DNA from: Pseudomonadota bacterium
GTDB lineage: Bacteria > Bdellovibrionota > UBA2428
Direction: 5' to 3'
Assembly (NCBI GenBank): GCA_018001635.1
Contig: JAGNHS010000006.1
Coordinates: forward strand, 2,905 to 66,904
Length of the DNA stretch: 64,000 nucleotides
Shown here: positions 3,241 to 52,463 of the stretch, in pieces
How the letters are laid out: each line of letters begins with the position of its first letter
Numbering within the stretch: position 1 is the stretch's first letter
Translations under genes and position numbers: made by a program
The notes under the pieces: model-generated
Databases searched by the model: none
What the model saw: only the letters and a program-made list of their open reading frames with translations
What the model was told of the DNA's origin: nothing

Positions 3241-4209
3241 CTACTTATACAAACCAATTTCACGAAGTCTTTGTGCCAAATATTCGCCTGCAGTGGTGGC
3301 GGGGTCTTTGGGGGGATTCTCGGCACTTGTGCAAGTGTCGAGAGCTGCTAATGACATGTCCGAAATGGGGTGTAGAAAAAAGGGAATAGAAAAACGAGGC
3401 TTGCTCATAGCAGAGCGATCTGTTGGATTCACGACTTGGTGTGTGGTGCTTTTAAGTCTGTAATTAGTGAGACGCTGAAGCATGTCGCCCACGTTAACTA
3501 CGATTTCATCGCGTCCACTTTGAAGTGCGACCCATTCGCCTTTGCGGTTTTTAACTTGGAGGCCGGGTTCAGATGCGCCAATCAAAAGTGTGATGAGGTT
3601 GATGTCTTCATGTGCAGAGGATCTGTAGGCTTTGGGTTCTTCATCACCCCTAAGTGGAGGGTAGTGAATGGGGCGAAGTATAGAATTTCCGTAACGGACT
3701 TTTTCAGTAAAATAATCTTCTGGAACTTCAAGTATGATGGAGATAGCTCTGAGCATGTCGATGCCAAGTTCCAGTAAACCACTATAGAGATTTCTAAGTG
3801 TTTGATCGAAGTCTTTCACATCGGATACGGAAACGTTTTTGGGATAAACTTTTGATAGTGGGTTGCTTTCGGGAACCTCAACACCAACATGAAAGAATTC
3901 TTTAAGATCAAATACAGGATTGTCTTTGGCGTGCTCTGTTTTAAAAGGTGTGAAACCTCGGGCGCCACCAGTATTTGGAATGTGGTATTTCATTTTTGTC
4001 TCATTGGGGAGAGCAAAAAAGTTTTGAACCACTTCATAACTTTTTTCTTGCAACTGTGAACTCACCTTGTGACCTTTGATGATCACAAAACCAATGTCTT
4101 CGTAGGCCGTTCGTAATCCCTGAACAAAGGCCTTTTTATCGCTAGAATTATTAGAATAAAATTGGTTGATATCGAGTGTAAGAATTTGGCTCATAGGCCT
4201 CGAATACAT
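3241..4209 (-). CDS. 2-oxoglutarate/Fe(II)-dependent oxygenase (isopenicillin N synthase-like family)
   Basis: N-terminal DIOX_N-like region (FVQGLRTAYEDIGFVIIKGHKV) and 2OG-FeII_Oxy core (AHEDINLITLL...GDMLQRLTNYRLKSTTHQVVNP) with the HxD...H triad pattern. Confidence 0.8.
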   Translation of the reverse strand: MYSRPMSQILTLDINQFYSNNSSDKKAFVQGLRTAYEDIGFVIIKGHKVSSQLQEKSYEVVQNFFALPNETKMKYHIPNTGGARGFTPFKTEHAKDNPVFDLKEFFHVGVEVPESNPLSKVYPKNVSVSDVKDFDQTLRNLYSGLLELGIDMLRAISIILEVPEDYFTEKVRYGNSILRPIHYPPLRGDEEPKAYRSSAHEDINLITLLIGASEPGLQVKNRKGEWVALQSGRDEIVVNVGDMLQRLTNYRLKSTTHQVVNPTDRSAMSKPRFSIPFFLHPISDMSLAALDTCTSAENPPKDPATTAGEYLAQRLREIGLYK

Positions 4210-4292: not shown

Positions 4293-6071
4293 TTATAAAA
4301 GCTTTAATGGCCCCGCGACGAGCTCTCCACCTCTGTGAATACTCGCTTGGTTGGGGTGATTCAGAGCGATTCCTGGTGAAAGCTGTGCATAATTTTCAAC
4401 GCTAGTCATTGTTGCGCGAGTTTCATAGAGCGCTTGAATGGGCAGAATGAGGTCGGCTCTGTCTGTGTAAATGCTTTGAAAAGAATCAGCCACTATAACG
4501 AGAGGGGCGCTGGCAAGATATTGTGCGAGAGCTTCAGAGCGTTTTCTTTGCGTGCTTTGAGCAAATAAAAATATGGGGCCCTTAGCTTTTTGCCCTTGAA
4601 GAGAATTTTCCAAGTACTCAATAGGGGCGAGACCTTCATTTAGAAGTCCTCGAGAATTAGTGCCAGTCCAAAGCACAAGCTGTTGGCATTGTGCAGAGGC
4701 TTGAGACATGGCCTTGAGGTCAGTATCATTTTTAGGAGCTGATAAAAGCAATAAGTCTTCTGCGCCAAGTTTAGAAAATTCAGAAGAGTCTTTGTATTCA
4801 ATCCACTGCAATTTAGATTCTCTAACAGCTTGGGCAATTTTTAATTTTAAAATTGGAATGAGTTTTTCAAGTGTGTCTAAGGAAATTGGAGAATGAACTT
4901 TTTTGACTTGAGCCCAGTTAATTTGACCGGCACCTTGTGGAGTGGCGGCCAGAGTTTTCCAATAATTTAAGAGACTCGCCGAAGCTGGGCTCGGATTGAT
5001 GACTTCAACTTTTCGCCCTCGAGCGATCCAGGAATCTCTTAATTCTTTGGCCCAAGAAATTTCTTCGTGGGGGGCGGTGTCTTCTATCCAAAATTCCCAC
5101 GCATTTTGATTGGAGTATTCTTCAATGTTTCTTTGAATCTCTTTTAATGAAACTTCTTCGAGAGCTCCATTTTTTGATCGGCGTAACATTGGGGATTGAA
5201 GTCGAAGTTCGTCGTTATTGTGAAAGTGATATCCCCATCGTCCTTCGTCACACATCCACCAACGATTGATGTTTTGATTTTTGCGAGGAGTGAGTCGTAC
5301 AATTTTTGGATTAGGTGGAGCTTTGTCGGGGCGAACGATTCCAGGGTGGCGATGCTTGGTGTCGATTTCAACGTTGCAACCCATTGAGCATCCTGTGCAA
5401 ATAGCATCGTGGCTTTTAAGTTCCCAAGGACGCGCGGCAAATCTAAAATCCTGAGCTGTTAAGGCGCCCACAGGACAGAGATCGACGACGTTTCCTGAAA
5501 ATGCGGATTTTAAGGGAGCGTTGTTAAAGACGTCTATGACGTTGGAATTACCTCGGTTGTTGACAACAAGTTCTGCTTTGCCGTCAATTTCAGAGGAGAA
5601 TCGTACACAGCGAGTGCAGAGAATACATCGTTCTTGGTCGAGAACGATTTGGTCAGAAATGCTTTTATGTTTATCTCTCAAAACTTTTTCGTCTTCCATT
5701 CGAGAGAGTGGGGGGCCATATTGATAAGTGTAGTCTTGAAGTTTGCATTCTCCACCGCGATCGCAAATAGGGCAATCTAGAGGGTGATTGAGCAGTGTGA
5801 ATTCTAAAGACGCATTTTGTCCGCTTTGAACTTTTTCAGATTGAGTGATGACTTTCATGCCTTCGGCAACAGGGGTCGAGCAGGCTGTAGCCAATTTAGG
5901 CATGCCTTCAACTTCTACAAAACACATTCGGCATTGGCCCACTACCGTGAGGCCTTCATGATAGCAAAAATAGGGAACATGTTGTCCCGCTTTTTTGGTA
6001 GCCTTAATGATGTTGGACCCCTGGGGAACGCTAACTGGGATTCCGTCTACTGTAAGATTTATATCGCTCAC
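4293..6071 (-). CDS. nuoG: NADH-quinone oxidoreductase subunit G-like (short form, 592 aa)
   Basis: 2Fe-2S ferredoxin start (INLTVDGIPVSVPQGSNIIKA...CYHEGLTVVGQCRMCFVEVEG...ACSTP). His/Cys cluster HPLDCPICDRGGECKLQD. 4Fe-4S motifs CILCTRCVRF and DLCPVGAL, then CTGCSMGCN. The C-terminal molybdopterin-like region is short. Confidence 0.85.
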   Translation of the reverse strand: MSDINLTVDGIPVSVPQGSNIIKATKKAGQHVPYFCYHEGLTVVGQCRMCFVEVEGMPKLATACSTPVAEGMKVITQSEKVQSGQNASLEFTLLNHPLDCPICDRGGECKLQDYTYQYGPPLSRMEDEKVLRDKHKSISDQIVLDQERCILCTRCVRFSSEIDGKAELVVNNRGNSNVIDVFNNAPLKSAFSGNVVDLCPVGALTAQDFRFAARPWELKSHDAICTGCSMGCNVEIDTKHRHPGIVRPDKAPPNPKIVRLTPRKNQNINRWWMCDEGRWGYHFHNNDELRLQSPMLRRSKNGALEEVSLKEIQRNIEEYSNQNAWEFWIEDTAPHEEISWAKELRDSWIARGRKVEVINPSPASASLLNYWKTLAATPQGAGQINWAQVKKVHSPISLDTLEKLIPILKLKIAQAVRESKLQWIEYKDSSEFSKLGAEDLLLLSAPKNDTDLKAMSQASAQCQQLVLWTGTNSRGLLNEGLAPIEYLENSLQGQKAKGPIFLFAQSTQRKRSEALAQYLASAPLVIVADSFQSIYTDRADLILPIQALYETRATMTSVENYAQLSPGIALNHPNQASIHRGGELVAGPLKLL

Positions 6072-6086
6072 TTTTTAAAAAACCTC

Positions 6087-7793
6087 TTACCTATCAATTT
6101 CGCCTAAAACGGGATCGAGACTTGCAATGGTTGTGACCACATCGGCGATGAGTTTTCCTTTAACGAGTTCGGGAATAATTTGTACGCTTCTATAAGAAGG
6201 ACTGTGTATACGAGTGCGCACGGGTTTGTTGCCGCCATCACTTTTAATGAAAAATCCAAATTCTCCTTTGGGATTTTCAATGGCGGAATAAATCTGGCCC
6301 ACAGGAGCTTTGAAACCCTCGGAGATAATTTTAAAGTGCCAGATTAGAGCTTCCATTTGAGTGTAAACTTGATCTTTTGTTGGAATCACAACTTCAGGAA
6401 CATCGGCATTAACAGGGCCAGTAGGAAGATTGTTAATGGCTTGTTCGAGAATTTTGATACTCTCACGCATTTCAAGTTGGCGTACGAGATATCGATCGTA
6501 AGCATCGCCGTTGTCACCTAGGGGAACTTTAAAATCGAAATCTGAATAGGCCAAATAAGGCATGTTTTTTCGAAGATCCCAATTGATGCCAGTGGCTCTT
6601 AAGTTCGGACCACTAATTCCGTATTGCAGAGCTAGTTTTTGGCTTATGGCGCCTACACCGCTAGTGCGATCAATCCAGATACGATTGTTAGTAAGCAAAT
6701 GCTCCATGTCGTCGAGTGTGGCGGGTAATTGCTTTAGAAACGCTTGTAGTTCAGTAATGAATTCTTTGCTGGCGTCGCGAGCCACTCCACCAATGCGTGT
6801 ATAGCTTGTCGTGAATCGATGCCCAGCCAGTTTTTCAATGAGATCGTAAATTTTTTCACGTTCATCGAAGGTGTGGAAGAAAACTGTGCCGGCTCCAACG
6901 TCGAGAGCGTAAGTTCCAAGAGCCAATAGATGGGAACTAATTCTTGCTAATTCACAGGCGATCACTCTTACGTATTGAGCGCGTTTTGGAAGTTCAATTC
7001 CAAAAAGTTTTTCAACAGCCATGGCGTAGCTCACATTGTTAGAAAGCGGCGCTAAGTAGTCGAGTCGGTCAGTGTATGGAATAAATTGATGGAATCTTTT
7101 ATTTTCAGCAATTTTTTCGAAACCGCGATGGAGAAATCCAATATCGGGAATGCATTGAATCACTGTTTCGCCATCGATTTCTAGAATCATTCGGAGCACC
7201 CCGTGAGTGGAGGGGTGTTGTGGGCCCATGTTTAAAATTAAAGTGTCGTTATGCTTTTTTTGTATAGGAGTGCTGAGTTTTGGAAGGCTTAGCTTAACGG
7301 GTTCGTCGGATCGACTGATGGGATTTAATCCATGACTGCGCTTAATCTTTTTTTGCACCGTAAATAGAGCTTGCATGAGAGCTTCGGGACGGGGGGGACA
7401 ACCCGGAACATAAACATCTACGGGGAGAATGTGGTCGAGGCCCTGAACTACGGGATAGCTATCGAACATTCCCCCAGTGCAAAGACAGGTGCCCATGGCG
7501 ATGACCCATTTGGGTTCCATCATTTGCTCGTAAACACGTCGAACAACGGGCGCCATTTTGTATGTGAGAGTACCAGCCACGATCATAAGATCGGCTTGGC
7601 GCGGAGAGAATCGAAGCACTTCGCTTCCAAAGCGTGACATATCAAATTTAGGACCAACGGTGGCCATCATTTCGATAGCGCAACAAGAAATTCCCATAGG
7701 CATAGGCCACAGACTATTGGCCCGACCCCAATTGATGAGATCCTCCAAACGAGTTGTGATTATGGATTCGCCTAGTTTTGACTCAAGACCCAT
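6087..7793 (-). CDS. nuoBD: Fused NADH-quinone oxidoreductase subunits B and D (no NuoC segment)
   Basis: Residues 1 to about 160 are NuoB ([19 protein letters not shown]; [12 protein letters not shown]; [10 protein letters not shown]). After a roughly 40-aa linker comes a complete NuoD ([16 protein letters not shown]...GFLHRGFEK...[13 protein letters not shown]...[10 protein letters not shown]). Total length (568 aa) leaves no room for a NuoC domain. Confidence 0.9.
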
Positions 7794-7795
7794 TT

Positions 7796-8164
7796 TTACA
7801 AAGTCTCCTCAAGATGTTCGTCTGCATCATCTTCTTCGCTCAAAGCGGCAGGTTTTTTCTTCATATCTGACTTGGATTGAAACTGTCGAATAAGGTGTTC
7901 TTCTCTTTGAAGAAGTTTGTCGATATTTTCAATTTTAATAATGAGGCGATCGATTTGCAGATCGGATATTTTGCCCTCTTTAGTGTGTTGAACTGCAATC
8001 TCACCAATTTTTTGTAAAAATTGAAGGCGCTGTTGCTGAAGTCTGGTCGCGTCATAAAGAGTTTGTGCAATTTTTCCGGTTCTAGAGAGTTCTTCGGCCG
8101 GACGAGCAAAAAATCGCCGAAAAGCATTGCTGATACTACGGGTAAAACTCTTTGATGTGCTCAT
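7796..8164 (-). CDS. Hypothetical coiled-coil protein (122 aa), immediately upstream of nuoBD
   Basis: ORF ends 2 nt before the nuoBD start. Heptad-like, charged sequence with an acidic tail. No family recognised. Confidence 0.45.
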
Positions 8165-39759: not shown

Positions 39760-42700
39760 TTATTTTTTCTTCTTATTCTCTGTTTTGAATAGTTTTCTAA
39801 GAAGTTTTACAACATTCACTTTTTCTTCTTCCTCGGAGATGAGTTGATAACCTACAAAGTTATCCATTTTAGCTTTCCCGATGAGGAATTGTCCAAGGGC
39901 ATCTTCTTCGCTGTAAGCTGTAAAGTTTATAGTTCCAAAGAATCGTGAATTGCCCATAACTTTTTCAATATTAGATTGAGCTGAATCGCTAAGATCTGCA
40001 ATGAGGTCGCCAAACATGAATGTGAAACGATCGTATTCAGAATCTGGAAATTTGGCTTGCACCTCTAAGGCTTTAGCCGCGCCCACTCCATAATCTGTGC
40101 CTCCACCCAGTTGGACTTTATAGAAGTCATTTTCATGGGCTTCGTCAAAATCATAAGCCACTCCGTCAAAAGCCACGTAGGTAAAAACGATGTTTTTATA
40201 TTTGTGTTTTAAAAGTGAGCGAATGTTGAAAATGATTTCCTTCATTTTCTCTACATATCCCATCATACTTCCTGATAGGTCAGAGATAATAGTGACATGG
40301 GCAGAGATGTCGGGGTCAGGTTGCTGCCGATGATTTTTAGAATGAATGTTTTTCTTCTGTAAAAAGTCCACGCCAACTTCGAAGGGGTCAAGCTCGGAGG
40401 TATCCTCGCCCTCTTCTTCTCGAAGGTTGATCACGCCGAGTCCGAGTTTAATGGCATCGCGAACAATTTTCTTAGCCACATAGGGTTTACGGTCTAAAGG
40501 TTGAGAGCCAACAAATATTTTACGCATTTGTTCGGTTTGTCCCTTGAGTGGTCTTAGGTTGGGTAACTCAACTTCATCCTTTATGAGGCTTTGATAAAGC
40601 TCTAATGGAATTTCAATATAAGAGGGGTCGCCACCGCCGCAGCCTTGACCATTTGAGGGTTTGCCTGTGTCACTATCCTCATCGCTACCTTCGTCGGGTT
40701 CTCCGTCGCCTTCACCATCACCGTCATTTCCATCGCCAGGCTGGTTTGAGGATTTTTCAACATAGTATTCCTTGTCCTTAAGACCTTGGGGCTGCAAAAG
40801 AAGTCCATCATCAGTTACAAAGGGATTGTTGTCTAAATCATTCACTTTTGAGAGTAATCTTTTTATTCCGTTTTGCGCACGTCGATCGAAGACTATTCCG
40901 CCAACTTCAGGCAGCACTTTGAGGCTATAGCCGCTGCCAGTTCGAGTGAGGCCACCATTGTTGGCCGCTTTTGAGAATGCCGCTAAAAATCTTTCTGCAA
41001 CTTTTTGGTGATATCGATTGAGTGCTTTGAGAATTCCGTGAGGAACTTCATTGAGTGCCATAGAACCTACAACATCGTTGATGTTTTTATAAATACTACC
41101 TAGAGGATCAATTTCAATTCCTTCTTTGTTTTTGAGAGTGCTGACAATTCCCTTTGGAACTTCAGTTTGATCGATATGGTAATCTATTAAAAATTCTCTT
41201 AAATTTTTAAATAGATGACCGTAAATTTCTTTGTCTACTGTAGATTTTTCTGCAGCCTCAGGAGTCCATTCTCTAAAGCTAGGCGTTTGATGAATTTCAA
41301 TTCCTTCTTCCCAAGAAGAATTACTATCCAATATTTCCATTTTTTTAAGAGTTGAGACGTTTATTTGTCCTTCAGGGTTGACTCTTATTTTCGCTCTAGC
41401 CAAGCGATATCCAATGACTTTCATTTTAGGTTTGAAACTAAACCAGTCCCACGTCACTTCTTTTATAACATCGATGATAAGTGTGGCTTCTAATTCAACA
41501 GTTTTCCTAAGTATTTTGGCCCAACTGAGTAGAGTAGGGGCTACAGTTTTTCTATTGATGGGTGTGAAGTAACCCATTTCATTACTCACAGATAATTTCG
41601 CAACATCATCTGTCTGATTGTGCAAATTATTCCAGACAACACGCGGATAGGCGTAGGAGAGGTTCCAGTCCTGTTGCACTTGATATCGAATACGTTCAGG
41701 ATCGTGAGTGATGACCTGATAGAGGGTGCCGTCCATATAATCTTGAGGAAGAGGAGCCCCTTGTTGAGCAAGTTGGAATTTTTCTTCGTTGCTGAATTTT
41801 TTAACTAGGGCTAGGTGCCTGTTTTTGATCCATTGATCAGTCAGCTTAGAAAAAATAAACATGACATTATTGCCAAGGTTTGGATTGTTTATGATTTCTC
41901 TAGCATAATTTATAAATTTTTGATCGCGCTCCATTCCTTCCAATTTAATGTTTTCAGGGCGCCTATTGAATTCTTCTCTAATTTCTCTCCAAATTTCGAG
42001 TCCGAGAAAATAAGGATTTGTGAGTGAGGGTCGCGCTACTCTTCCAGCGAGCATCCCAATTTCAGCAGCGTCACCAAAACTTCGTGCATAGTCGGGGTGA
42101 TGTGAGAAAATAATTTCCTCAACGAGCATGGCAAAACCTTCATTGAGTAACTTTGTGTTAACGGCACCAGGAATAAAGCGATTCATTTTTTCAAATTTTT
42201 TCGCCATTTCTAATTTCCAAGGTGCGATATCGCTTGGTAGTTCACTAACAAAGGCTTGAAGAAGGCTTACCGTTTGCTTTCCTGAACTCTGACTAGTCTG
42301 AACAAGGCCATCGCGCCATTGATTGAATCCTATGGGTCTGTCAGCCTTTAAGTCTTTAGGTTCTACATAGGCACCGCTCCAAACATCTTGTGCCATTTCA
42401 AGCGAAAGTAAATGGAAAAACCAATCCTCTACTTCTCGAGGATCTTCATATTTTCCAATATCTGTCATTAGTTCATCGAGCTCAACAGAAACTCCAACGC
42501 GATCATGGGAAGTTTTGTGTTTAAAGTAAGAATTCACATGGAAGAAATTATGGCCATAGACGTGAGCCAATATGTTCATGAATAATATGGGACTTAAGTT
42601 GCTCAAGTAATAGCTATGCTGTGTGCTGTGGCCCGAGAGTACAAATTCTAAAACCCCTTGAAGATTTCGTGCTTGATTGAAAATTGCGGCCCCGTCACTC

Positions 42701-42969
42701 CAGCTGCCGACAGGGTAACGATTCACCGCCGCCATTCCAGCCACTGAAGACGGATTGAGTAATTCTACAATATGTTTTTTTATGCCATTTAGAAGACCTA
42801 ATTTATCGGCGATGTCATGAACTTCAGCTAAACGTTTATGATATTCCGCTGCGTCAGGTTGGTTGTGCGAGTCCGCTATTAAGTGCTCTTGGCAGCTGAA
42901 AGAGTGTTGGGCAAAGATGAAGCTAAGGATACTGAGAAACTTTAGAGTGTTTAATCTAATAAAGCTCAT
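39760..42969 (-). CDS. Fusion protein: N-terminal SpoVR/YcgB-like domain plus C-terminal YeaH/YhbH (DUF444, vWA-like) domain, with signal-peptide-like N-terminus
   Basis: SpoVR block GVLEFVLSGHSTQHSYYLSNLSPILFMNILAHVYGHNFFHVNSYF (about 42540-42660). A Gly/Asp-rich linker (GDGNDGDGEGDGEPDEGSDEDSD) follows. DUF444 blocks are YIEIPLELYQSLIKDEVELPNL, PDPDISAHVTIISDLSGSM and QLGGGTDY. N-terminus is MSFIRLNTLKFLSILSFIFAQHS. Confidence 0.85.
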   Translation of the reverse strand: MSFIRLNTLKFLSILSFIFAQHSFSCQEHLIADSHNQPDAAEYHKRLAEVHDIADKLGLLNGIKKHIVELLNPSSVAGMAAVNRYPVGSWSDGAAIFNQARNLQGVLEFVLSGHSTQHSYYLSNLSPILFMNILAHVYGHNFFHVNSYFKHKTSHDRVGVSVELDELMTDIGKYEDPREVEDWFFHLLSLEMAQDVWSGAYVEPKDLKADRPIGFNQWRDGLVQTSQSSGKQTVSLLQAFVSELPSDIAPWKLEMAKKFEKMNRFIPGAVNTKLLNEGFAMLVEEIIFSHHPDYARSFGDAAEIGMLAGRVARPSLTNPYFLGLEIWREIREEFNRRPENIKLEGMERDQKFINYAREIINNPNLGNNVMFIFSKLTDQWIKNRHLALVKKFSNEEKFQLAQQGAPLPQDYMDGTLYQVITHDPERIRYQVQQDWNLSYAYPRVVWNNLHNQTDDVAKLSVSNEMGYFTPINRKTVAPTLLSWAKILRKTVELEATLIIDVIKEVTWDWFSFKPKMKVIGYRLARAKIRVNPEGQINVSTLKKMEILDSNSSWEEGIEIHQTPSFREWTPEAAEKSTVDKEIYGHLFKNLREFLIDYHIDQTEVPKGIVSTLKNKEGIEIDPLGSIYKNINDVVGSMALNEVPHGILKALNRYHQKVAERFLAAFSKAANNGGLTRTGSGYSLKVLPEVGGIVFDRRAQNGIKRLLSKVNDLDNNPFVTDDGLLLQPQGLKDKEYYVEKSSNQPGDGNDGDGEGDGEPDEGSDEDSDTGKPSNGQGCGGGDPSYIEIPLELYQSLIKDEVELPNLRPLKGQTEQMRKIFVGSQPLDRKPYVAKKIVRDAIKLGLGVINLREEEGEDTSELDPFEVGVDFLQKKNIHSKNHRQQPDPDISAHVTIISDLSGSMMGYVEKMKEIIFNIRSLLKHKYKNIVFTYVAFDGVAYDFDEAHENDFYKVQLGGGTDYGVGAAKALEVQAKFPDSEYDRFTFMFGDLIADLSDSAQSNIEKVMGNSRFFGTINFTAYSEEDALGQFLIGKAKMDNFVGYQLISEEEEKVNVVKLLRKLFKTENKKKK

Positions 42970-45900
42970 TTTTTCTCCTCAGGAATCAATAAATATTCGC
43001 AACGATCGCCGAATCCAGCATGATTTCTTTCCAATTCCGGAACCTTATCTCTTATGAGATCATTACCTTCTAAAAGTTGTGTGACGTATTCAACAGTAAG
43101 AGGTGAGAGTGGAGATTCTTCAGTTTTAAAGGCAAATTCAGCGAATTCAGCTCGGGTGCTGAGCGCGGGTTCGTCTATGATTTCTTCGAGCATTTTCATC
43201 ATGAAAACGTTGGCATTGTCCCAGGGTAGATTGGCAATGGCTTGGTCTATAGCCCAAAGAAAAATAATCGCTAAATCACTTGAGCTCAAATTTCTGTGGA
43301 GTCCTTTTTGTACTTCTTTGAGTTTGGGATTTAAAAAACCCTGATTAGAGACAAACATTTGAAAGAGGTCTCTTATTTTGTCTGTAGTGCTTGCAAATTC
43401 TTCACGCACTTCTTTTGAGTTTTTCATGGAATCAAGCCAAGCTTGAGAGTTGGATTCTTGAAATCCATTGGATTGATAAAATTTGTAAAACAAATTTTTC
43501 ATGAGCGATTCAATGTTGATAATTAAGCGGCTTATGTATTCACGTTGTCCTTCTTGTTCCTGAATTGAGCCTTTAATTTTTAAAAAATCATCTAGGGAAT
43601 CGCTCTCAAGAACGCTAGACGCGGGAAGTTTGAAAGGAATAACGGGTTTTGAATTATGATGAGCATCCATGAGGTCTTGGAATTCGGAAAGGAAACCAGA
43701 GTGGTTATTTATTTTTAATCGAACTGGGGATAGATCCAAATTCCAAAATCTTAATTCTGGACGATTTCTTAAGTTGAGATAGACTCCCGTGATGAGCGGT
43801 TTGAGGTAGTACATTTCATTTTGAAGACTCGCCCTAAAAAACTTATGATTTTGGATTGAGTTTATGAAATGATTATAAAAATTGATTCTAAAAGAGTTAG
43901 AATTAAATTCTGCGAAATCAAGTCTTCCGCGAAGGTTGTCAAAGGTGACTGGTTTTACAACAACATGTTTCTTAATTTGGTTTCTTAATGTGGTTGAATT
44001 TATAGTGGAACCACCTTCTTCCACTTGATGATCATCATTGTACCATTCATCAACATTCCAATCGTCTTTGAGGTCTTTGCTGTCATGGGTATCGCTTTTA
44101 GAGCTAGTCACATAATAGAGTGGAGCGGGGGCTAGAGAGTCATCTTTAGCTTCTGTGAATAGAGAGTTAGTAACGGGCATTAAAAAGTTTCGCGCGTGAG
44201 CTTTGGGGAAAATTTGTGCAATTTCAGAAAGAATATGTGGATTCACTAAAATCAGTTTGTTTGAAAGAGTTAATTCTTGGAGACTTCGAGCTCTGATTTT
44301 TGAAATCAAACCCGAGGCTTTGGCCTCACGTGGAAAATCACCAAAGTTAATGAGATCAGAAAAACGAGCTAAGATGGAGGGCTCATATTGAGCACCTTCA
44401 ACTTGTGAAAGTGCTGCAATGATTTGTGATTCAATAGAACTAGCATCATCGATATATTGATCTCTAATTTCACGATTGGATGCAGGGTTGATGGTTACAA
44501 ATAAAGAGATATTTCTAACAGGAATTTCGATGGTCATTTTATCTTCAAGACGAGAGACTCTGACCAAGTTGTTGTTCAGTAAGTTTTGGATATAAGACAT
44601 AACTCGACTGAGAACGTTGGCGTTCTTAGCTTTGTGAAGATCGTCAATAAGTATGAAACCTCGGTAGCCGAGAGGAAGTGATAAGAAATTGTCTAAGTGT
44701 TTCAGTGCGTCTTCAACATATAAACTTTTTCCAGTGGCTTCTTCTTTTTTATCTACCAAATCTTCTACTTTTAGGAAAAAGGCTTGAGCATTTTCATCTA
44801 AAGGTCTGTTGAAGTCGTAAACTTTTATATCGAGTAATTGGATGAGCTTCTCAAAGAAAAAAGTTTTTCCTAAACTTGTTTCACCGAAAAATACGGCTGA
44901 TGAGGGAATTTGCTTTGAACTATCGGACCCTTGAGTTTGCGAAAGAATAAGCCTGAAAATTCTTTCTTTGAGATCCAGTTGACCAGCATATCCTAGTTTT
45001 GTGAGATCCACTGCGGCTCGAGCGGTGTCTTTAATTTTATGAAGAACGTCTTCGGGTTCAAGGGATTTATAATTTAAGGGGATGGGGAAAACTTTGGCTA
45101 AAAATCTTTCTACATAGTTTTCGTCAATCACTCGACTTCTTCTGAGTTTATGGTCGTCGACTAATGATTTTCTAAAAATGGAATAGGAGCGTACAAAGGC
45201 TTCGATGGGTTCTTGATTGAGTGAATTGGCAACAGCTTCAATTCGATTGGCTAAAAATTTGGTGATGTTCAAAAACGGAGCGCTGTTTCTTTCGGCGCCA
45301 GATTCGTTTCCATTGTATCGAAATGAGTAATTCAGAGTTCTAATGTCTTCTCGATAGAATAAATTTCTCAAAATGTTAGAGCGGTGCTCTACGCTTGGAT
45401 ATTCAAGTCGAACTATTTCAAAATCTTTTTGAAGATCCATAAAATGCGACTCAAGGCCTAAATCTTTTTCTAAATCTTCGATTTGTTCAGGAGTGGCTAC
45501 AATAATTTCTGAAACGCTTGGGGTAGCTTCATCTCTTAAGCGCCATTGCTTTTTTAATTTAGGTTGGATTCTTCTACCTTCGGAGGCCAACCACCACATG
45601 ATGTGAGGGAAAATTGTATTGGGTTTGTCTATGTCGCTACGAGAAGAACTGTTTCCATCTTTGTCACTGCCTTCGTTGGGGCTGTTGGCGCTCGATTGAG
45701 CCTCGGAAGCCGTTTCAGCTAATAGCTCAGTTTTTTTCATGGCCGCAGGATCGCTAATTCTAAAAGGTTTGATGTCGCTTTTTTCTCCAACTAGTGGACG
45801 TTCATTGCGTAAAAGGTCGCTCGCATCTGCTAAAAGAACAACACTATTTTCTTGGCTGAGTCTTCTCATGGCGTCTAGATTGCCAAAGATTTCTTCTTGA

Positions 45901-48900
45901 TGAACTTTTCCACCTTGTGGATATCTGAATATTGAAAGATGGGGATTTCGAAAATTCCAGGAAGTGTTTAAATTTGGATTTCCATTAGTATCTCTTTCTA
46001 GGGCCACGTTGTAGCGACTCGACCAATGAGTCATTAAAAAGCGAAGCATGAGTTTTTTGATGTTTTCAGGGACAACTATGATTCTATGTTTAGGTTTTTC
46101 AGGTTTTTTAGAGAGCTCACTCAAAATGGGTCTTAAATTTGGGAAAACTTGAAGATCGTCTGAGGTGAGCGCACTCACCGACATTCTTCTGATGTCAGGA
46201 GTGGATCTCGGAGTGTTCGGAGGCCAGTTGTACCATTGTGAGGTTAAGAATCTTGCATCGATTTCAAATAGACCTTTGTCTACTAAGCCTGCTTTGAATT
46301 CATGAGGATGAGCTTCTTGAAGTTTTAAAAGTTTTTTAGGAGTTGTTAGAACAACAGTTGTCACAGATTTGAAGGAGTCTGATGGAGAGCTTAAATCTTT
46401 AAGGTGTCGTCCTTTTCCTTCCGTGGCTAAGAGAAAAAGTCCAGAAAGTTTATGGGGCGAAGAGGGATCGTAAATGTGATCAGACGAGGTTGAGCGTGCT
46501 GATTCGGAGAAGCTTTCTTCATCGAGTTCATCGCCACCTTGGTTTGTTTCTACAACTTCTGGTTCATCTTCTTCATGCTTGTGTTTAGTTCCTTTGTTTC
46601 TGCCGTCGTTCTCTTCTTCATCCTCTTCGTCATCTTCTGTCTTTTTGTTTGAAGCTTTAGACTCGGGATCATTATTAGCGCTTACGGTTTCGATTCCCAT
46701 TTGTCTTTCAGAGTCGCTTGAGGCGTAGTCGAGTATGCTAAACGAGGATGCACTGTCACTATCTTCAGAGTTTTTGCCGTCTGTTTCTAATATGAAAGTT
46801 TGTAAAAGCTCGTCGGAGCCTGCAAATAGTACGTTTTGTGTTGTTGATTCAGAGGCAAGTTTTAATTCCTTGCGCATTTCCCGAGCATCGGATTGATGGT
46901 CAAAGAAGTAGAGTTCAAAATCGTTTCCACCGGGTTTCCATTTAAGGGACCAACCTGTTTTTTTGTTATCGAGTTTAAGGAGCATGAGGTTATAAAAGTT
47001 GGCGTAGTCTTCGTCAGACACTACAAGGAAAGTTTTTTTACCTTTTTTAGAAGGATCTACGACTAAGGAATCTAGGTACTCGTCTAAGAGTGGGTAAAGT
47101 GGTCCTTTCCCCCCAGGTCCGAAATTTAAATCTTTATAAGTTTTAGCTTGCTCAGCTTCATTTCCGTCGAGTGCTTTGGAAAGTGTTGAATTAATTGAGC
47201 GTAATCCAGTGGAGGATGAAATGCTCCATCGACTTCCTATCCAAAATAAGCGACCCTCTTTTTCGTTTTCCTGAACAATTCTTTCTTTAAGGCGAATATT
47301 AATATTTTCTTTTGAGGGAACAACAAGTTTAGAGACGTAATTAAAACATCTCATTTTATATTTTGCAGAAAAATAATCTTCATTGGGAGTGTCAACCCAA
47401 TACAGGGCACCATTGCCATCGGGAAGCACTCGGTCGCTAATGCGATTGGCGGTCACATAACTTTTTGTAAGCCAACCTGAGGAATCTGGAATGTTGTTGG
47501 CTGTGAATTCAATTTTTCCAGCTTTGAGTTGAGATTGAATTTCGTATCCTAGCAGATACACGCCACCCGTGTTCTGACGAGTCCTTTTGAGAAAGAGCAT
47601 AACGTAAATGCTGTTAGCGTGCTTTCTTAAACCTTTAAAAACTCTTACACCCTCAATTTGAGAGAATGAAAATGGAAGCTCTCGTGTGGCGAAGAAAGTG
47701 TTCTTTATGTTTTCTCCAACTCGACCCTCGTAATTAAAAAGGGTCACAAGATTGAATTTTCCTTCTAAATTAGGTTGCTGAGAGTTGTTTGGAAGCATTC
47801 CAAACAAATGGATTTTGAAGGCTTCCAATTGCTTCGAAGATTCGCTGAGTGGAAGATGAATGTCAGTGGTGTATAGAACAGCACGAATGGAATCTTTGGA
47901 AATGGATGTTCTTGAATTTTTCTTTGTCTTTGTTTTTGAGCTATTGGAATAGATAAGCTGTCCGGGAATGAATGATGAATCATCTTTGTTTAAATGCGAT
48001 GTTGAATCAGCAGGTGTTTCGTGTCGATCTGCGGAATGCGTATCCTCAAGATAGACTCCGGTTTTTTCATTGAGTTGTGATTGTTTGTCGTTATTGAATT
48101 CTCGATAAACAACATGGGGGCTCATGATTACGGGAAACTCGTTTTTAGCTTGAAGAAATACTGTTTTCTTTTTGGGGTCGCTTTCAGAGACGTTAAGATA
48201 GGCGGTGACTCGCAGTCCTCCGGGATTTTTTTGAGAATCACTTCTATAGGTTTTGGGCCCCACGCGAGGAGTGCTGTTGTCGAAAACTAAACCAAGGTTT
48301 TCCACATTCTTGATTCGTAATTCTAGTTCTTCTTTGCTGAAACTGTACGTATTCGATATAACCTGCATGTCTTTAACGCTGACGTGACCCATGGATTCTT
48401 CAAGTTCAATCGCGAAAGTTCCCCCTCCAGGATAATATTGAGTTTTTCCTGATAAAATTAAATAATGTTTTTTGTAAACCGCACCAGAAATGAGTTCGTC
48501 ATCAGGGGTGTTGTCTGAAAATCCAAAAATGGGTGCTGATTTTCTTTTTTCGATTTTAGGTTGTGGAAGATCAAAGGACTCTAGAATTATAACGTTGTCG
48601 TTGTTGAAAGGGTCGAATTTGAGTTTGGTAAATTGTTCTTGAACTTCGACAACCTGAATACTTCTGTTTCTGGATTTTAGTCTTAACAGAATGCTTTTAT
48701 CCAATGAGAATAAAACCTCAACAGAGGAATCGTTTGAGAGAGATCGAGTTAAAAACTTTTTATTGTCTTGATCCCAGCTGAGTCTTCCTTTTTGGGGTGG
48801 AGTACCTTCATATTGAAAGGAGAGCCCATCTCCTAAGGGTTCAAAGAATTGAGTGACTCCCGAAATGGCCATGTTAGAAACTTGAGGTTCGGGTCTTTTC

Positions 48901-49844
48901 TCGAGGACATCCACTAAGGGAGGATTAGTGAGCACACTCAGTTTAAGAGATTTTCCAGAATTAATATCGATGTCTCTATATCGACTTGTAAAAGTTTTTT
49001 TATCGATTTTGGAATTGGGGTCGAGATAATCCAATAAAAGCTTCACTTTTTTTAACCAAATATCAACGAGAGGGTGCTCTTTGTCGTTTTTCCATTTTTC
49101 ATAAACTGTTTTTAGAAGATAGGGGGAGTATGCTTTGTCGGGTGAATAGTCGGCAAAAAGTCTTATGAGTCCTTGGTCTGTGGGGTGAAATCTATAATCG
49201 AGGAGCACCGGTTCAGATATTTTAAATTCACCTGTTTCGATGCCTCCGTTTTTAACAATAGCAAAAGTGATTCCGTCAGAACCCATTTGAGGAATGCCTT
49301 GCTTAACTGAGATGATATACATACACGAGTTGTCTACAGGGTATTGTACAATCGTGATGTCTTTGGGGTCCTTTATGTTTTCAAGATAAATTTTACGTTT
49401 CGTGAGAGGATCGATGATTGGGACGGGAGTGGCAAATTTGTTGGGTATTTTTTGGGATTCATTAGCGCCAATAATGAGTGAGCTGGCTGCTTTTTTTTCT
49501 GAAGTGTTTTTGTTAACGATATAAATTTGTCCATCGAGAATGACTAAGGCTTCTTGATTTCCTTGTTGAGTGACAGGAGCTAAGAGTACAAAAGTTTCAG
49601 CGGATCGCTTATTCACGCCAAGCACTTCTTTTTGAATCAGTGGAGTAGAGTTTTCAGCTCCAGTATTAAAAAAATAAATTCCCTTTTTTTTGCCATTGAG
49701 TTCAGTGTTGAATACCAACTCGTATAAGGCTCTTGCATTATGAGGATGTGGAAAAATGAAAGACCCCTCGTCGGCCGCGCGTAAGGCTCCACTTTGTCCG
49801 ACAAGTAGGGCGGCAAGGGCAATATGTTTGAGGAGGTGTCTCAT
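42966..49844 (-). CDS. Giant (2292 aa) protein: signal peptide, unassigned N-terminal region of about 880 aa, acidic linker, and Clp/Hsp100-like AAA+ modules (last one with intact Walker A/B)
   Basis: Uninterrupted 6.9-kb ORF with signal peptide MRHLLKHIALAALLVGQSGALRA|AD. Walker A is FFGETSLGKTFFFE (about 44863-44886) and Walker B is GFILIDDLHKA (about 44641-44665), followed by NISLFVTINPAS. An upstream Clp D1-like block is IIVATPEQIEDLEKDL...FEIVRLEYPSVEHRSNILRNLF. ATGA overlap with the downstream gene. Confidence 0.8.
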   Translation of the reverse strand: MRHLLKHIALAALLVGQSGALRAADEGSFIFPHPHNARALYELVFNTELNGKKKGIYFFNTGAENSTPLIQKEVLGVNKRSAETFVLLAPVTQQGNQEALVILDGQIYIVNKNTSEKKAASSLIIGANESQKIPNKFATPVPIIDPLTKRKIYLENIKDPKDITIVQYPVDNSCMYIISVKQGIPQMGSDGITFAIVKNGGIETGEFKISEPVLLDYRFHPTDQGLIRLFADYSPDKAYSPYLLKTVYEKWKNDKEHPLVDIWLKKVKLLLDYLDPNSKIDKKTFTSRYRDIDINSGKSLKLSVLTNPPLVDVLEKRPEPQVSNMAISGVTQFFEPLGDGLSFQYEGTPPQKGRLSWDQDNKKFLTRSLSNDSSVEVLFSLDKSILLRLKSRNRSIQVVEVQEQFTKLKFDPFNNDNVIILESFDLPQPKIEKRKSAPIFGFSDNTPDDELISGAVYKKHYLILSGKTQYYPGGGTFAIELEESMGHVSVKDMQVISNTYSFSKEELELRIKNVENLGLVFDNSTPRVGPKTYRSDSQKNPGGLRVTAYLNVSESDPKKKTVFLQAKNEFPVIMSPHVVYREFNNDKQSQLNEKTGVYLEDTHSADRHETPADSTSHLNKDDSSFIPGQLIYSNSSKTKTKKNSRTSISKDSIRAVLYTTDIHLPLSESSKQLEAFKIHLFGMLPNNSQQPNLEGKFNLVTLFNYEGRVGENIKNTFFATRELPFSFSQIEGVRVFKGLRKHANSIYVMLFLKRTRQNTGGVYLLGYEIQSQLKAGKIEFTANNIPDSSGWLTKSYVTANRISDRVLPDGNGALYWVDTPNEDYFSAKYKMRCFNYVSKLVVPSKENINIRLKERIVQENEKEGRLFWIGSRWSISSSTGLRSINSTLSKALDGNEAEQAKTYKDLNFGPGGKGPLYPLLDEYLDSLVVDPSKKGKKTFLVVSDEDYANFYNLMLLKLDNKKTGWSLKWKPGGNDFELYFFDHQSDAREMRKELKLASESTTQNVLFAGSDELLQTFILETDGKNSEDSDSASSFSILDYASSDSERQMGIETVSANNDPESKASNKKTEDDEEDEEENDGRNKGTKHKHEEDEPEVVETNQGGDELDEESFSESARSTSSDHIYDPSSPHKLSGLFLLATEGKGRHLKDLSSPSDSFKSVTTVVLTTPKKLLKLQEAHPHEFKAGLVDKGLFEIDARFLTSQWYNWPPNTPRSTPDIRRMSVSALTSDDLQVFPNLRPILSELSKKPEKPKHRIIVVPENIKKLMLRFLMTHWSSRYNVALERDTNGNPNLNTSWNFRNPHLSIFRYPQGGKVHQEEIFGNLDAMRRLSQENSVVLLADASDLLRNERPLVGEKSDIKPFRISDPAAMKKTELLAETASEAQSSANSPNEGSDKDGNSSSRSDIDKPNTIFPHIMWWLASEGRRIQPKLKKQWRLRDEATPSVSEIIVATPEQIEDLEKDLGLESHFMDLQKDFEIVRLEYPSVEHRSNILRNLFYREDIRTLNYSFRYNGNESGAERNSAPFLNITKFLANRIEAVANSLNQEPIEAFVRSYSIFRKSLVDDHKLRRSRVIDENYVERFLAKVFPIPLNYKSLEPEDVLHKIKDTARAAVDLTKLGYAGQLDLKERIFRLILSQTQGSDSSKQIPSSAVFFGETSLGKTFFFEKLIQLLDIKVYDFNRPLDENAQAFFLKVEDLVDKKEEATGKSLYVEDALKHLDNFLSLPLGYRGFILIDDLHKAKNANVLSRVMSYIQNLLNNNLVRVSRLEDKMTIEIPVRNISLFVTINPASNREIRDQYIDDASSIESQIIAALSQVEGAQYEPSILARFSDLINFGDFPREAKASGLISKIRARSLQELTLSNKLILVNPHILSEIAQIFPKAHARNFLMPVTNSLFTEAKDDSLAPAPLYYVTSSKSDTHDSKDLKDDWNVDEWYNDDHQVEEGGSTINSTTLRNQIKKHVVVKPVTFDNLRGRLDFAEFNSNSFRINFYNHFINSIQNHKFFRASLQNEMYYLKPLITGVYLNLRNRPELRFWNLDLSPVRLKINNHSGFLSEFQDLMDAHHNSKPVIPFKLPASSVLESDSLDDFLKIKGSIQEQEGQREYISRLIINIESLMKNLFYKFYQSNGFQESNSQAWLDSMKNSKEVREEFASTTDKIRDLFQMFVSNQGFLNPKLKEVQKGLHRNLSSSDLAIIFLWAIDQAIANLPWDNANVFMMKMLEEIIDEPALSTRAEFAEFAFKTEESPLSPLTVEYVTQLLEGNDLIRDKVPELERNHAGFGDRCEYLLIPEEKK

Positions 49845-49862
49845 TTTCCAGCTTTACTCAGT

Positions 49863-52463
49863 TTATTTTTTGTCGTGCTTGTTGACGTGCTCCACTAAGA
49901 ATCGAAGCGCTTGCACGAAAGATCTCTCGTTGTATCCGTATCTTTCCAAGTTGCTGAGTATCTTTTGCCCAGCCGTTTGAGTTTCAGTGGCCACGGATCT
50001 TCCTTGCATGAAATCAAGGAGGCTTTGGTAGCTGTTAGTTTTTAAGTTCTGACTCATCAACCAATCAGAAATAGCTTTTTCAAGCTTAATCCACATGGGG
50101 AGGGGTGATCCGTCAGTATTATGAAGCGCTAAATTGGCAACATAAGCTTGGAGATCTGGGGGATTAAGATCGTCGCCCCAGCGTTTTCTAAAGGCCTTTT
50201 TAATTTCAGTGAGTCTATCAAAATTGATGGCAGTAGGTATGTCGCCTTTTGATTTAGTGTGGTGTGTGGCTTTAGAGTCTTGCGCTAAGTGTGAAATTTC
50301 CGAAGTGACTGCATCGTAAATACTGCGCACTTTATTGGTGTCGTTAGCAATAATCGAGTTCACATCGTTCATGAGCTTAGGAAGTATGAGCTCTGCTGCA
50401 ATTCTCTCGGCGAGTTCGAGCCATTTAGCGTATTCAGGGCGTTCCTTTTGAAATTGGTTTTCGTGAAGGGTGAGTCTAAAGGCGTCTTTTATTTCTACAG
50501 GAGTTAAAGTGTTTGAATGTCCGGGAGATTGTGCGAGTTCAAGGGCCTTTTTAAAGACCACTTCAATATCGCGTTGTCCAATTCCATTATCGCCTTCATT
50601 GAGAAGAGCTTCCTTTGAGAATTCCGTTAAAGCCGCTAGAACTTCTTGATTCTCAACAACTTCATCTCCTGTGATAATTCGAAGACGGTCAATTGGGTCG
50701 GTGAACCATCTTAGATCGGGACGTGTGATACGAGTGAGAATGTTGGCGTCTTTGAGTTTATCGATATTTGTTTCAAGCGAAGAGCCTGCGGCAATGCATC
50801 CCAAGAAATATAGCGAATAGGGTGAAATATCGACAAAGGAACTTTTGCTAGCGCTGATTTCAGCTGGCGAATCAATTTTAACTCTTACGGCGTAATGACC
50901 CTCAGGGCCTGAAATATTTCCATTGCTGTCGGGTTCTGCATAAATTTCCTTGATGAGGGGTGAATTTGAGCTTTCGTTTAGTGTGGCGAGATTTTTGTGT
51001 TCTGTTGAATCCAATTTGCGTGCACTAAAGTTATTGGGTTTGAGAGTGAGTAAAAGTGCAAGCTCTCTCCATCTTGGATGGAGGAGGTTTTTCATGGCAA
51101 TATGTTGTAAGCGAGATAGAAGAGCGTCGGTGTCCATGCGTTTTTTGGAATCTGCAATGGAACTATAGTTTGCAGAAAACACATTAAAGGTGTCCATCGC
51201 TAAAGCGGGGGTGTCTGAACCTTTGGCGACGCCTTCTTGTAATACAGAAAGTAGGAAGTGGAGAACTACGGGGTCGTTTCGAGTAACGTCGTCCCAAATG
51301 ATCATGGAGCCATCGTTTTGAGAGAGGGGTCCGTTAAAATGGAAGCCGAGAGTGTTATTGGCGCCTTTAATTCTTGCGGCTACGTTGGCAGTTCCAATTA
51401 AAGAAGAGGTGTCGGGGGCTTCTTCCATAGGACGAATAATGGGATCGCGATTGGAGGCAAGGCTGATGTCTTTTCTTGCAATACCCACAAAATTTTCAAA
51501 TATGGCTAAATAGTCAGCTACGGTGAGAGAAGTTGCTTTTGTGGCTTTTAAAATATGTTTTTTATAAAAAGGAATGAGAAATTCTCTTAGGATATCTTCT
51601 GCATGAGAATCGCGGGCGACAGCTTGGCCAGGATTTCTTTCGTAGAAATCACCAATGTCGAAACCTAACATTTTAGAGGCGGTGGCACCTAGAGTTTTTG
51701 CGTAAGCCACTTTGAGTTCGGTGGGAAGTAGGCTGAAGGGACTTCTTTGAAGGCTTGTAACATTAAGGCGATCGCTATCTTTGACTAAGAATTGATCGAG
51801 TCTTTGACCTAATGAAGGATCAGTTTGTTTTATCATGTCCAAATTTTTCCAAAAATAGGTGTATTCCTTGAATAGAGGATCTCGAACTGAGAGGTGGGCT
51901 AGGGCATATCGAATGACGTATTCGAGAACTGTTTTTCCAGTTCCTGGAGGTCCCTTTAAAAGTGGTCCTTTACTTCCGCGCATACCTTGTGCGGCTTCGG
52001 AGATGATTTTTGCCAAGCTCGAGCTAGCTTCATATTGGCCTACGAGAAAAAGTCCGCCAGTTGCGGGCAAGGCATCATGATAGACTTTGGGAACATTATA
52101 ATATTGGTGCTTGTAGACGGGGTCTAAAACTCGGCGATATCCAAAATTATTCAAGACCGCTAATTGTTTTTGATCAGCATTCATTAAAAGTAAGGGATGC
52201 TCTTTTATGAGATCGGGTAATTTTGAAAAAGGATACTCTACGGCGTATTCTTCGGTGCCGGCAATAGCTAGTTGAGCCACTGTTTCGGGCACTAAAAGAG
52301 TTGAGCATAATTTTGGATCAACATGAAAACTTTTAGGAGTGCTAGTTGTTGATTTAGCCGCGGATGCTTTTTTGCTTTCTGCTGCAAATGAAAAATTTTC
52401 TAAGCTCATTAAAAAAATAACGACGTGTGTAATTTTTAGAATTGTAGGTAGGCTTTTTCTCAT
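49863..52463 (-). CDS. PrkA/YeaG-like AAA+ protein (866 aa) with signal-peptide-like N-terminus
   Basis: PrkA-type N-terminal AAA blocks are SLAKIISEAAQGMRGSKGPLLKGPPGTGKT (Walker A about 51932-51955) and DGSMIIWDDVTRNDPVVLHFLLSVLQEGVAKGSDTPALAMDTFNVFSANYSS. A long helical C-terminal region follows. N-terminus is MRKSLPTILKITHVVIFLMSLENFSFA|AE. Confidence 0.75.
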   Translation of the reverse strand: MRKSLPTILKITHVVIFLMSLENFSFAAESKKASAAKSTTSTPKSFHVDPKLCSTLLVPETVAQLAIAGTEEYAVEYPFSKLPDLIKEHPLLLMNADQKQLAVLNNFGYRRVLDPVYKHQYYNVPKVYHDALPATGGLFLVGQYEASSSLAKIISEAAQGMRGSKGPLLKGPPGTGKTVLEYVIRYALAHLSVRDPLFKEYTYFWKNLDMIKQTDPSLGQRLDQFLVKDSDRLNVTSLQRSPFSLLPTELKVAYAKTLGATASKMLGFDIGDFYERNPGQAVARDSHAEDILREFLIPFYKKHILKATKATSLTVADYLAIFENFVGIARKDISLASNRDPIIRPMEEAPDTSSLIGTANVAARIKGANNTLGFHFNGPLSQNDGSMIIWDDVTRNDPVVLHFLLSVLQEGVAKGSDTPALAMDTFNVFSANYSSIADSKKRMDTDALLSRLQHIAMKNLLHPRWRELALLLTLKPNNFSARKLDSTEHKNLATLNESSNSPLIKEIYAEPDSNGNISGPEGHYAVRVKIDSPAEISASKSSFVDISPYSLYFLGCIAAGSSLETNIDKLKDANILTRITRPDLRWFTDPIDRLRIITGDEVVENQEVLAALTEFSKEALLNEGDNGIGQRDIEVVFKKALELAQSPGHSNTLTPVEIKDAFRLTLHENQFQKERPEYAKWLELAERIAAELILPKLMNDVNSIIANDTNKVRSIYDAVTSEISHLAQDSKATHHTKSKGDIPTAINFDRLTEIKKAFRKRWGDDLNPPDLQAYVANLALHNTDGSPLPMWIKLEKAISDWLMSQNLKTNSYQSLLDFMQGRSVATETQTAGQKILSNLERYGYNERSFVQALRFLVEHVNKHDKK

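Follow-up and report, generated by a model that had tools for sequence, protein, structure and literature searches.

Canonical complex I is encoded by 14 nuo genes, or by 13 where nuoC and nuoD are fused and by 12 where nuoB, nuoC and nuoD form one gene, and these genes usually make up a single operon. NuoC (NDUFS3 in mitochondria) is regarded as an indispensable core subunit of the enzyme and as an early scaffold for assembly of its quinone (Q) module. Systematic surveys list CD and BCD fusions only (PMC12361115, PMC4453560). In the Bdellovibrionota, a cluster containing membrane-arm genes only, nuoAHJKLMN, is reported from one shared chromosomal position in every member, predators and non-predators alike (PMC13147790, 2026). 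The predatory members carry a further nuo set, which forms one operon in Peredibacter and is "split" in other Bdellovibrio and like organisms (PMC13147790), the same term that an earlier survey had applied to the nuo operon of Bdellovibrio (PMC4758237). Here, we describe a 64,000-nucleotide stretch of a contig from a Bdellovibrionota member of predatory type, of the family Bacteriovoracaceae (JAGNHS010000006.1, positions 2,905 to 66,904; the window, always meant at its full length of 64 kb) in which a single gene on the minus strand, nuoBD (6087..7793), encodes a 568 amino acid (aa) fusion of NuoB with NuoD, hereafter BD, that lacks NuoC and is followed directly by nuoG. Neither PMC13147790 nor PMC4758237 mentions a B-D fusion and a literature search for "nuoBD" found no description of one. 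The fusion is conserved, mis-annotated and apparently undescribed.

The preliminary description of the window had read the open reading frame (ORF) of nuoBD as a complete NuoB, with the cysteine motifs of cluster N2, joined to a complete NuoD, and it was right about the position of the gene as well as its content. In Pfam, PF01058 (NuoB) matches residues 37–144 (E = 6e-27) and PF00346, the C-terminal part of NuoD, matches residues 298–568 (E = 3e-112). Among the NCBIfam models, TIGR01957 (NuoB) scores 229.6 bits over residues 11–152, against a cutoff of 142.7, and the NuoD equivalog TIGR01962 scores 552 bits over residues 184–568, against a cutoff of 459.35. Together with the ORF list and the variable columns of the homologue alignment, these hidden Markov model searches place the NuoB domain (aa 1–152) at 7338..7793, the linker (aa 153–184, composed of the C-terminal tail of NuoB and the N-terminal tail of NuoD) at 7242..7337 and the NuoD domain (aa 185–568 and the stop codon) at 6087..7241, all on the minus strand. 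The linker, first put at about 40 aa, measures about 30 (residues ~153–184). It varies in sequence among homologues and is predicted as coil, without secondary structure, in an AlphaFold model whose D domain has a pLDDT (predicted local distance difference test) of about 90. As far as its sequence tells, the 568-aa protein is a complete NuoB, an unstructured linker of about 30 aa and a complete NuoD of the complex I type.

Comparison with known complex I subunits gave a consistent picture. The B domain shares 57% identity with E. coli NuoB and, in a comparison with the sequences of solved structures, aligns with Thermus thermophilus Nqo6 at 210 bits, while the D domain aligns with solved 49-kDa subunits of complex I at 416 bits and with T. 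thermophilus Nqo4 at 410 bits. None of the solved structures contains one chain spanning both B and D. The ligands of cluster N2 in the B domain (the tandem Cys37 and Cys38, Cys103 and Cys132) are invariant in 60 of 60 aligned homologues. The same holds for His193, His197, Tyr246 and Asp298, which correspond to the quinone-site residues His34, His38, Tyr87 and Asp139 of Nqo4 if the numbering is shifted by 159, the difference read at the two ends of the alignment with Nqo4. The canonical Q-module, built from separate NuoB, NuoC, NuoD and NuoI (Nqo6, Nqo5, Nqo4 and Nqo9 in T. thermophilus), matches BD in its N2 ligands, its quinone-site residues and its overall sequence. In contrast to that module, B and D are covalently joined in BD, NuoC is not encoded alongside and the genes lie apart from those of the membrane arm.

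These results bear on the possibility that BD and NuoG form a soluble or hydrogenase-like oxidoreductase, of the group 4 [NiFe]-hydrogenase or Ehr type, unrelated to quinone reduction or to a membrane arm. NuoB and NuoD descend from the small and large subunits of hydrogenases, BD gives weak matches to hydrogenase families (E values of 1e-4 to 1e-5) and the module lies far from any membrane-subunit gene in about 27 loci inspected with 10-kb flanks. However, the hydrogenase models score only 15–25 bits, far under their cutoffs, whereas the NuoD equivalog exceeds its own, and the best matches among solved structures are bona fide complex I subunits. Direct reading of the D domain shows that both cysteine motifs that bind NiFe are absent, the sequence being LHRGFEK and [11 protein letters not shown], with no cysteine, while the quinone-site His/His/Tyr/Asp set is invariant. 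An enzyme of this kind is therefore very improbable.

PF00329 (NuoC) was not found in the 568-aa protein by Pfam. A NuoC profile was then built with jackhmmer over all collected loci (85 sequences); it recovered NuoC in each of 60 canonical loci used as a positive control, and found no match in the window or in 35 loci of the BD type, where the best noise had an E value of 7 even with the filters off (--max). This agrees with the preliminary description, which had seen no NuoC-like segment in or beside the fusion. The shape of the deletion is visible in a BLASTP alignment with a true BCD fusion of 771 aa (P0361): residues 1–163 of BD pair with residues 1–163 of the BCD protein and residues ~180–568 with ~384–771, so that the NuoC segment of the latter (PF00329 at 231–357) is without counterpart. 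Likewise, the B/C/D fusion model NF009808 is the top NCBIfam model for BD, at 713.5 bits against a cutoff of 1156, and its match falls into two parts, one on each side of the C region, where a NuoC segment of about 220 residues (model positions ~175–394) is missing. The NuoCD model NF008728 reaches 454.9 against a cutoff of 840 and covers model positions 207–598, the D part, only. BD is thus classified by these models neither as NuoBCD nor as NuoCD. A NuoC fold hidden in the linker, which had been raised as a reservation, is excluded: a variable coil of about 30 residues, with no profile signal, has no room for a fold of 150–200 residues. A vestigial NuoC tail in the linker was also considered, because BLASTP showed a weak overlap at the point where C meets D in the BCD protein, and was unsupported once the linkers of many homologues were compared.

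BD therefore shares with NuoBCD (NF009808, from the "NUO12" operons of Desulfobacterota and relatives) a single polypeptide that starts with NuoB and ends with NuoD. Compared with one such protein, its B part is 53% and its D part 44% identical. The two differ in their surroundings, since BCD genes sit inside complete A-BCD-E...N operons and BD stands alone with G, and in some clades with I. The NuoCD protein of the E. coli type is also a NuoD fusion and is of similar length (~590–600 aa), which is probably why BD is annotated as plain "subunit D". In NuoCD, however, the partner domain is the cofactor-free NuoC, whereas in BD it is NuoB, an iron-sulfur (Fe-S) protein.

A search of 5.8 billion proteins revealed that BD is not confined to this contig. 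It returned more than 120 homologues of 527–594 aa that contain both PF01058 and PF00346 and are 57–100% identical to the window protein, drawn from independent NCBI, JGI, ENA and Logan assemblies. BD is a single ORF in every locus examined. One locus with 99% identity carries the label "uncultured Bacteriovoracaceae", and another, with 82% identity, comes from a metagenome-assembled genome (MAG) of "Bacteriovorax stolpii". Within the window's family the proteins are 76–89% identical while synonymous sites are saturated; a nonsynonymous divergence (dN) of 0.13–0.17 together with saturated synonymous divergence (dS) places dN/dS below about 0.06. By this estimate BD is under strong purifying selection, and the fusion is to be regarded as real, not as an artefact or a remnant.

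The preliminary description had allowed that BD and NuoG might be a redundant paralogous remnant, decaying or functionless, beside a standard 14-gene nuo operon. A second nuo set has indeed been reported in predatory Bdellovibrionota (PMC13147790), and the GenBank annotation shortens the gene to a 429-aa "NuoD" (P0061). Decay is, however, difficult to reconcile with a dN/dS below about 0.06, with 76–89% identity in the family despite saturated synonymous sites, with ORFs intact in more than 120 sequences, with the invariance of all cofactor and quinone-site residues and with the conservation of BD across phyla together with G and I. The remnant hypothesis is in consequence hardly credible. The shortened GenBank call itself, a "NADH dehydrogenase (quinone) subunit D" within 6087–7793, starts at the internal Met140, cuts through the NuoB domain and loses three of the four N2 cysteines. 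Most BD homologues are likewise named just "subunit D", hiding the fusion from annotation-based surveys.

The distribution of BD points to a common ancestry. When 1.84 billion representatives clustered at 50% identity were searched, the whole family was covered by one representative (P0112), after which the next-best matches were BCD, CD or plain D proteins. In a neighbour-joining tree of D domains, the BD fusions of Bacteriovoracaceae, other Bdellovibrionota and Krumholzibacteriia were monophyletic with 61% bootstrap when an Eisenbacteria sequence was excluded. The closest canonical relatives have separate genes in the order B-C-D-E-F-G-H-I. The fusion thus appears to be of single origin and common to Bdellovibrionota and Krumholzibacteriota, and the simplest history for a single BD clade whose closest relatives have separate B, C and D would be that nuoC was lost once from its place between nuoB and nuoD, after which these two genes were joined in frame.

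In a long-read Candidatus Eisenbacteria MAG (L032, 10001–12053), a NuoB ORF of 243 aa, with a tail of ~85 aa, and a NuoD ORF of 460 aa, with an N-terminal extension of ~75 aa, lie in different frames with a 62-nucleotide overlap; G and I come next. Either the two ORFs are separate genes or they are one BD fusion, with a spacer of ~145 aa, that is interrupted by a frameshift error; no NuoC signal was found in the spacer. More distant architectures were also recovered. P0388 is an I-B-D triple fusion of 668 aa (ferredoxin, NuoB and a NuoD-like part) with a weak NiFeSe hydrogenase match, and P0444 and P0492 are B-D fusions 33–34% identical to the window protein. The three probably represent independent fusion events in hydrogenase-like relatives.

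The preliminary description had reported no other nuo gene within 64 kb, and tblastn with all 13 E. coli Nuo proteins supports it: the window holds matches to B, D and G only. For the comparative analysis, loci were collected with 10 kb of flank on each side of the query. In all of about 27 BD loci, from several lineages, nuoG directly follows BD, and none of nuoA, C, E, F, H or J–N occurs within 10 kb on either side. In Krumholzibacteriia, in a second Bdellovibrionota clade and in Eisenbacteria, nuoI comes after BD-G and scores 124–127 bits with TIGR01971 (cutoff 113). The BCD and separate B-C-D loci obtained from the same scans each lie within a full operon, and a metagenome scan for further BD contexts gave, among the matches listed, canonical B-C-D loci only. 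Set against the canonical A–N order, {B, D, G, I} and the membrane-arm set {A, H, J, K, L, M, N} of the separate cluster are colinear and share no gene, and only C, E and F are left over. The suggestion that the nuo genes of these bacteria are scattered is in line with the isolated BD-G(-I) of about 27 loci, with the term "split" used before (PMC4758237) and with the separate nuoAHJKLMN cluster (PMC13147790).

This complementarity and colinearity are the reason why we consider it probable that BD-G(-I) constitutes the Fe-S wire and quinone site of a split complex I and docks on the membrane arm that the separate cluster encodes. The reported nuoAHJKLMN of Bdellovibrionota would be the complementary half of the split (PMC13147790). 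Partial membrane-arm clusters are known elsewhere: Streptomyces has a second nuoAHJKLMN cluster, and a literature search on nuoAHJKLMN also gave Streptomyces genome papers. The reports name no dedicated partner for such clusters, and BD-G(-I) is a candidate for the peripheral-arm partner. According to the split complex I model, a short upstream ORF of 122 aa, nuoBD and nuoG would form an operon-like unit that contributes part of a complex-I-type enzyme encoded at distant loci. Electrons would enter at NuoG via clusters N1b, N4 and N5, would pass through NuoI, encoded beside BD-G in sister clades and presumably somewhere else in the window's family, and would reach cluster N2 in the B domain. 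Quinone would be reduced in a pocket formed by the B and D domains atop NuoH, with the membrane arm (A, H, J, K, L, M and N) supplied by nuoAHJKLMN. The fusion would have arisen once, on loss or relocation of the nuoC that ancestrally lay between nuoB and nuoD, and would have been kept in Bdellovibrionota and Krumholzibacteriota. NuoC, NuoE and NuoF would come from other loci, either a third part of the split or the second nuo set.

Several observations weigh against this model. The pairing of BD with nuoAHJKLMN draws on complementarity and on what a single publication states (PMC13147790), which mentions neither BD nor G and whose wording "nuoC and nuoD fused" is ambiguous. In the 10-kb flanks that define the loci, no nuoAHJKLMN, nuoC, nuoE or nuoF from a BD-bearing genome was seen. 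In the window's own family, the Bacteriovoracaceae, there is no NuoI near BD-G, a NuoI search gave no orthologue from the family's long contigs, and a 128-aa di-cluster ferredoxin near BD-G, considered as NuoI, turned out to be a generic ferredoxin. Tree support for the BD clade is modest. Moreover, NuoC is never beside BD in 35 loci and G and I are, as an enzyme without NuoC would predict.

A genuinely NuoC-less variant of complex I, in which NuoC has no part in the complex formed by BD, G, I and the AHJKLMN products, has to be weighed on that ground. The covalent B-D link would replace NuoC as clamp of the Q-module and as assembly scaffold, and NuoE and NuoF might be missing too, in which case NuoG would be the docking site of a non-NADH donor, as in Campylobacter. 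Neither the fusion nor any of 35 BD-type loci, drawn from at least three lineages, contains NuoC, with G and I still adjacent, and the gene removed by the fusion is exactly the one that separated B from D in the ancestral order. Taken together, the two complementary clusters lack C, E and F only, and other C-less architectures occur (P0444, P0492 and the I-B-D fusion P0388). Ech-type hydrogenases are related enzymes that are not known to have a NuoC. NuoG without NuoE and NuoF has a precedent in Campylobacter (PMC12361115). On the other hand, removal of the NuoC domain abolished complex I in E. coli (PMC7050243), NuoC is a universal core subunit, the further full nuo set reported in predatory Bdellovibrionota could donate it (PMC13147790) and absence from a neighbourhood does not equal absence from a genome. 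Such a variant is possible but doubtful, and the fuller proposal that Bdellovibrionota and Krumholzibacteriota run a NuoC-less enzyme made of BD, NuoG, NuoI and the nuoAHJKLMN products, possibly without NuoE and NuoF and with a non-NADH donor, is rather unlikely.

The retention of NuoG is informative in this respect. The usual role of this subunit is to bridge NuoF to NuoI, and its conservation next to BD suggests that a donor module of the E/F type is encoded elsewhere; by extension, NuoC may be encoded elsewhere as well. Within the split complex I model, a supply of NuoC, NuoE and NuoF from other loci is therefore somewhat the likelier case, and a truly NuoC-less enzyme the less likely one. 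The complex I of Campylobacter and Helicobacter, in which NuoG is kept, NuoE and NuoF are replaced and flavodoxin is the donor, offers a parallel, as the BD locus likewise has NuoG without adjacent NuoE or NuoF. It may serve as a precedent for a donor other than NADH (PMC12361115). However, the epsilonproteobacterial operon is contiguous and keeps NuoC.

Whichever way NuoC is accounted for, a widespread and strongly conserved BD lineage provides a natural test case for the structural replaceability of this subunit. It also bears on how the modules of a split complex I are assembled and on the separate regulation of Fe-S-bearing subunits. Surveys that count nuo subunits misclassify BD genomes because of the "subunit D" naming and, in this MAG, the shortened GenBank call. 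Carriers are probably available in culture (Bacteriovorax stolpii), which would make experiments on this question feasible.

The gene that follows BD, nuoG (4293..6071, minus strand), encodes a 592-aa protein with the Pfam domains Fer2_4, NADH-G_4Fe-4S_3, Fer4_Nqo3 and Molybdop_Fe4S4. PF13510, PF10588 and PF22117 all exceed their cutoffs and the cysteine and histidine motifs are readable in the sequence, so that the N-terminal ~300 aa are predicted to bind clusters N1b (2Fe-2S), N5 (His-Cys3) and N4 and to contain an N7-type site. The best solved relatives of residues 6–300 are the 75-kDa subunits of mitochondrial complex I (243 bits). The C-terminal ~290 aa form a divergent, reduced molybdopterin-like domain, and the NuoG equivalog TIGR01973 scores 408.5 bits against a cutoff of 470.05, compared with 392–433 bits for the BD-associated NuoG of other clades. 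The identification of this gene as nuoG in the preliminary description is upheld by its Fe-S domains and by the 75-kDa match, and what does not hold is that its shortness is unusual. BD-associated NuoG proteins measure 570–696 aa, while those of canonical Acidobacteriota operons with NuoC, E and F measure 549–596 aa. The idea that a short NuoG co-evolved with the loss of NuoC was rejected because these NuoC-bearing operons have an equally short or shorter NuoG.

Directly upstream of BD, on the same strand, lies the 122-aa helical ORF (7796..8164), which has no Pfam match. There is no base between its stop codon and the start codon of BD, and because the two codons abut, the genes are probably co-transcribed or translationally coupled. 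Homologues of ~120–140 aa and 30–45% identity are found directly upstream of BD in all Bacteriovoracaceae loci; they evolve much faster than BD and are absent from the other BD clades. The ORF is a clade-specific accessory gene. On the other side of nuoG, a 2-oxoglutarate (2OG)-Fe(II) oxygenase gene (3241..4209, minus strand; ORF list and Pfam) is loosely syntenic. Both flanking genes are as first described, unrelated to nuo genes and uninformative. A scan for promoters and terminators gave counts no higher than chance.

Further genes were recorded around BD-G in the collected loci. The 128-aa 2x[4Fe-4S] ferredoxin (L005, 19802–20188) lies 2.0–2.4 kb past the left edge of the window, is syntenic in L010–L014 and L018 and, in several loci of the Bacteriovoracaceae, is found 6–9 kb downstream of nuoG. 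The protein, RnfB-like or generic, has no counterpart to the N-terminal region of NuoI. Another candidate for the family's NuoI, P0358, belongs to a canonical G-H-I-J-K-L cluster. In Krumholzibacteriia (L001, 14063–19660; L009, 14206–18508), the genes after BD-G-I on the same strand are a SnoaL-like gene, a complete rnf set (RnfA/B/C/D/G/E) and ApbE.

Bdellovibrionota genomes that carry BD also contain orphan NuoB paralogues of 164–170 aa (L090, 10001–10501; L094, 10001–10504; L004, 16745–17245; L095, 10001–10510), which exceed the NuoB cutoffs and share 51% identity with E. coli NuoB. Two of the loci have the gene inside an operon of the order Rrf2 (IscR-like)-NuoB-sufB-sufC-sufD-sufS with overlapping start and stop codons, an odd place for the gene of an N2-type Fe-S subunit. 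The other two have it a few kb from BD-G-I, flanked by genes for a DHH phosphoesterase and an FAD oxidase. In L095, the orphan NuoB is likewise followed by a SnoaL-like gene. As a route to a second nuo cluster the orphan NuoB was abandoned, since it led to suf operons and unrelated context; the search also reached one ordinary 11-gene nuo cluster.

Displacement of single subunit genes was also seen in Acidobacteriota MAGs (L029, L030, L033, L035, L037, L038 and L040–L042), whose nuo operons have the order A-C-D-E-F-G-H-J-K-L-(M)-N. Since A is followed by C without nuoB and H by J without nuoI, these two genes must have their place elsewhere, which suggests that moving genes for Fe-S subunits away from the main nuo operon is a wider theme. 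The NuoD of these MAGs is the closest unfused relative in the genome scan, at 52–57% identity. In two JGI metagenome contigs (L109 and L110), NuoE, NuoF and NuoH were not detected with E. coli queries and NuoG is present; their nuo clusters read A-B-C-D-G-I-J-K-L-M-M, NuoM being apparently duplicated.

Finally, a distant part of the window (39760–52463, minus strand) contains a PrkA-like gene of 866 aa (49863–52463), followed by a 2292-aa ORF without Pfam match (42966–49844) and by a 1069-aa protein that combines SpoVR with DUF444 (YeaH-like; 39760–42969). These genes represent an unusual PrkA-YeaH-SpoVR triad, in which two members are fused and a giant ORF is inserted.

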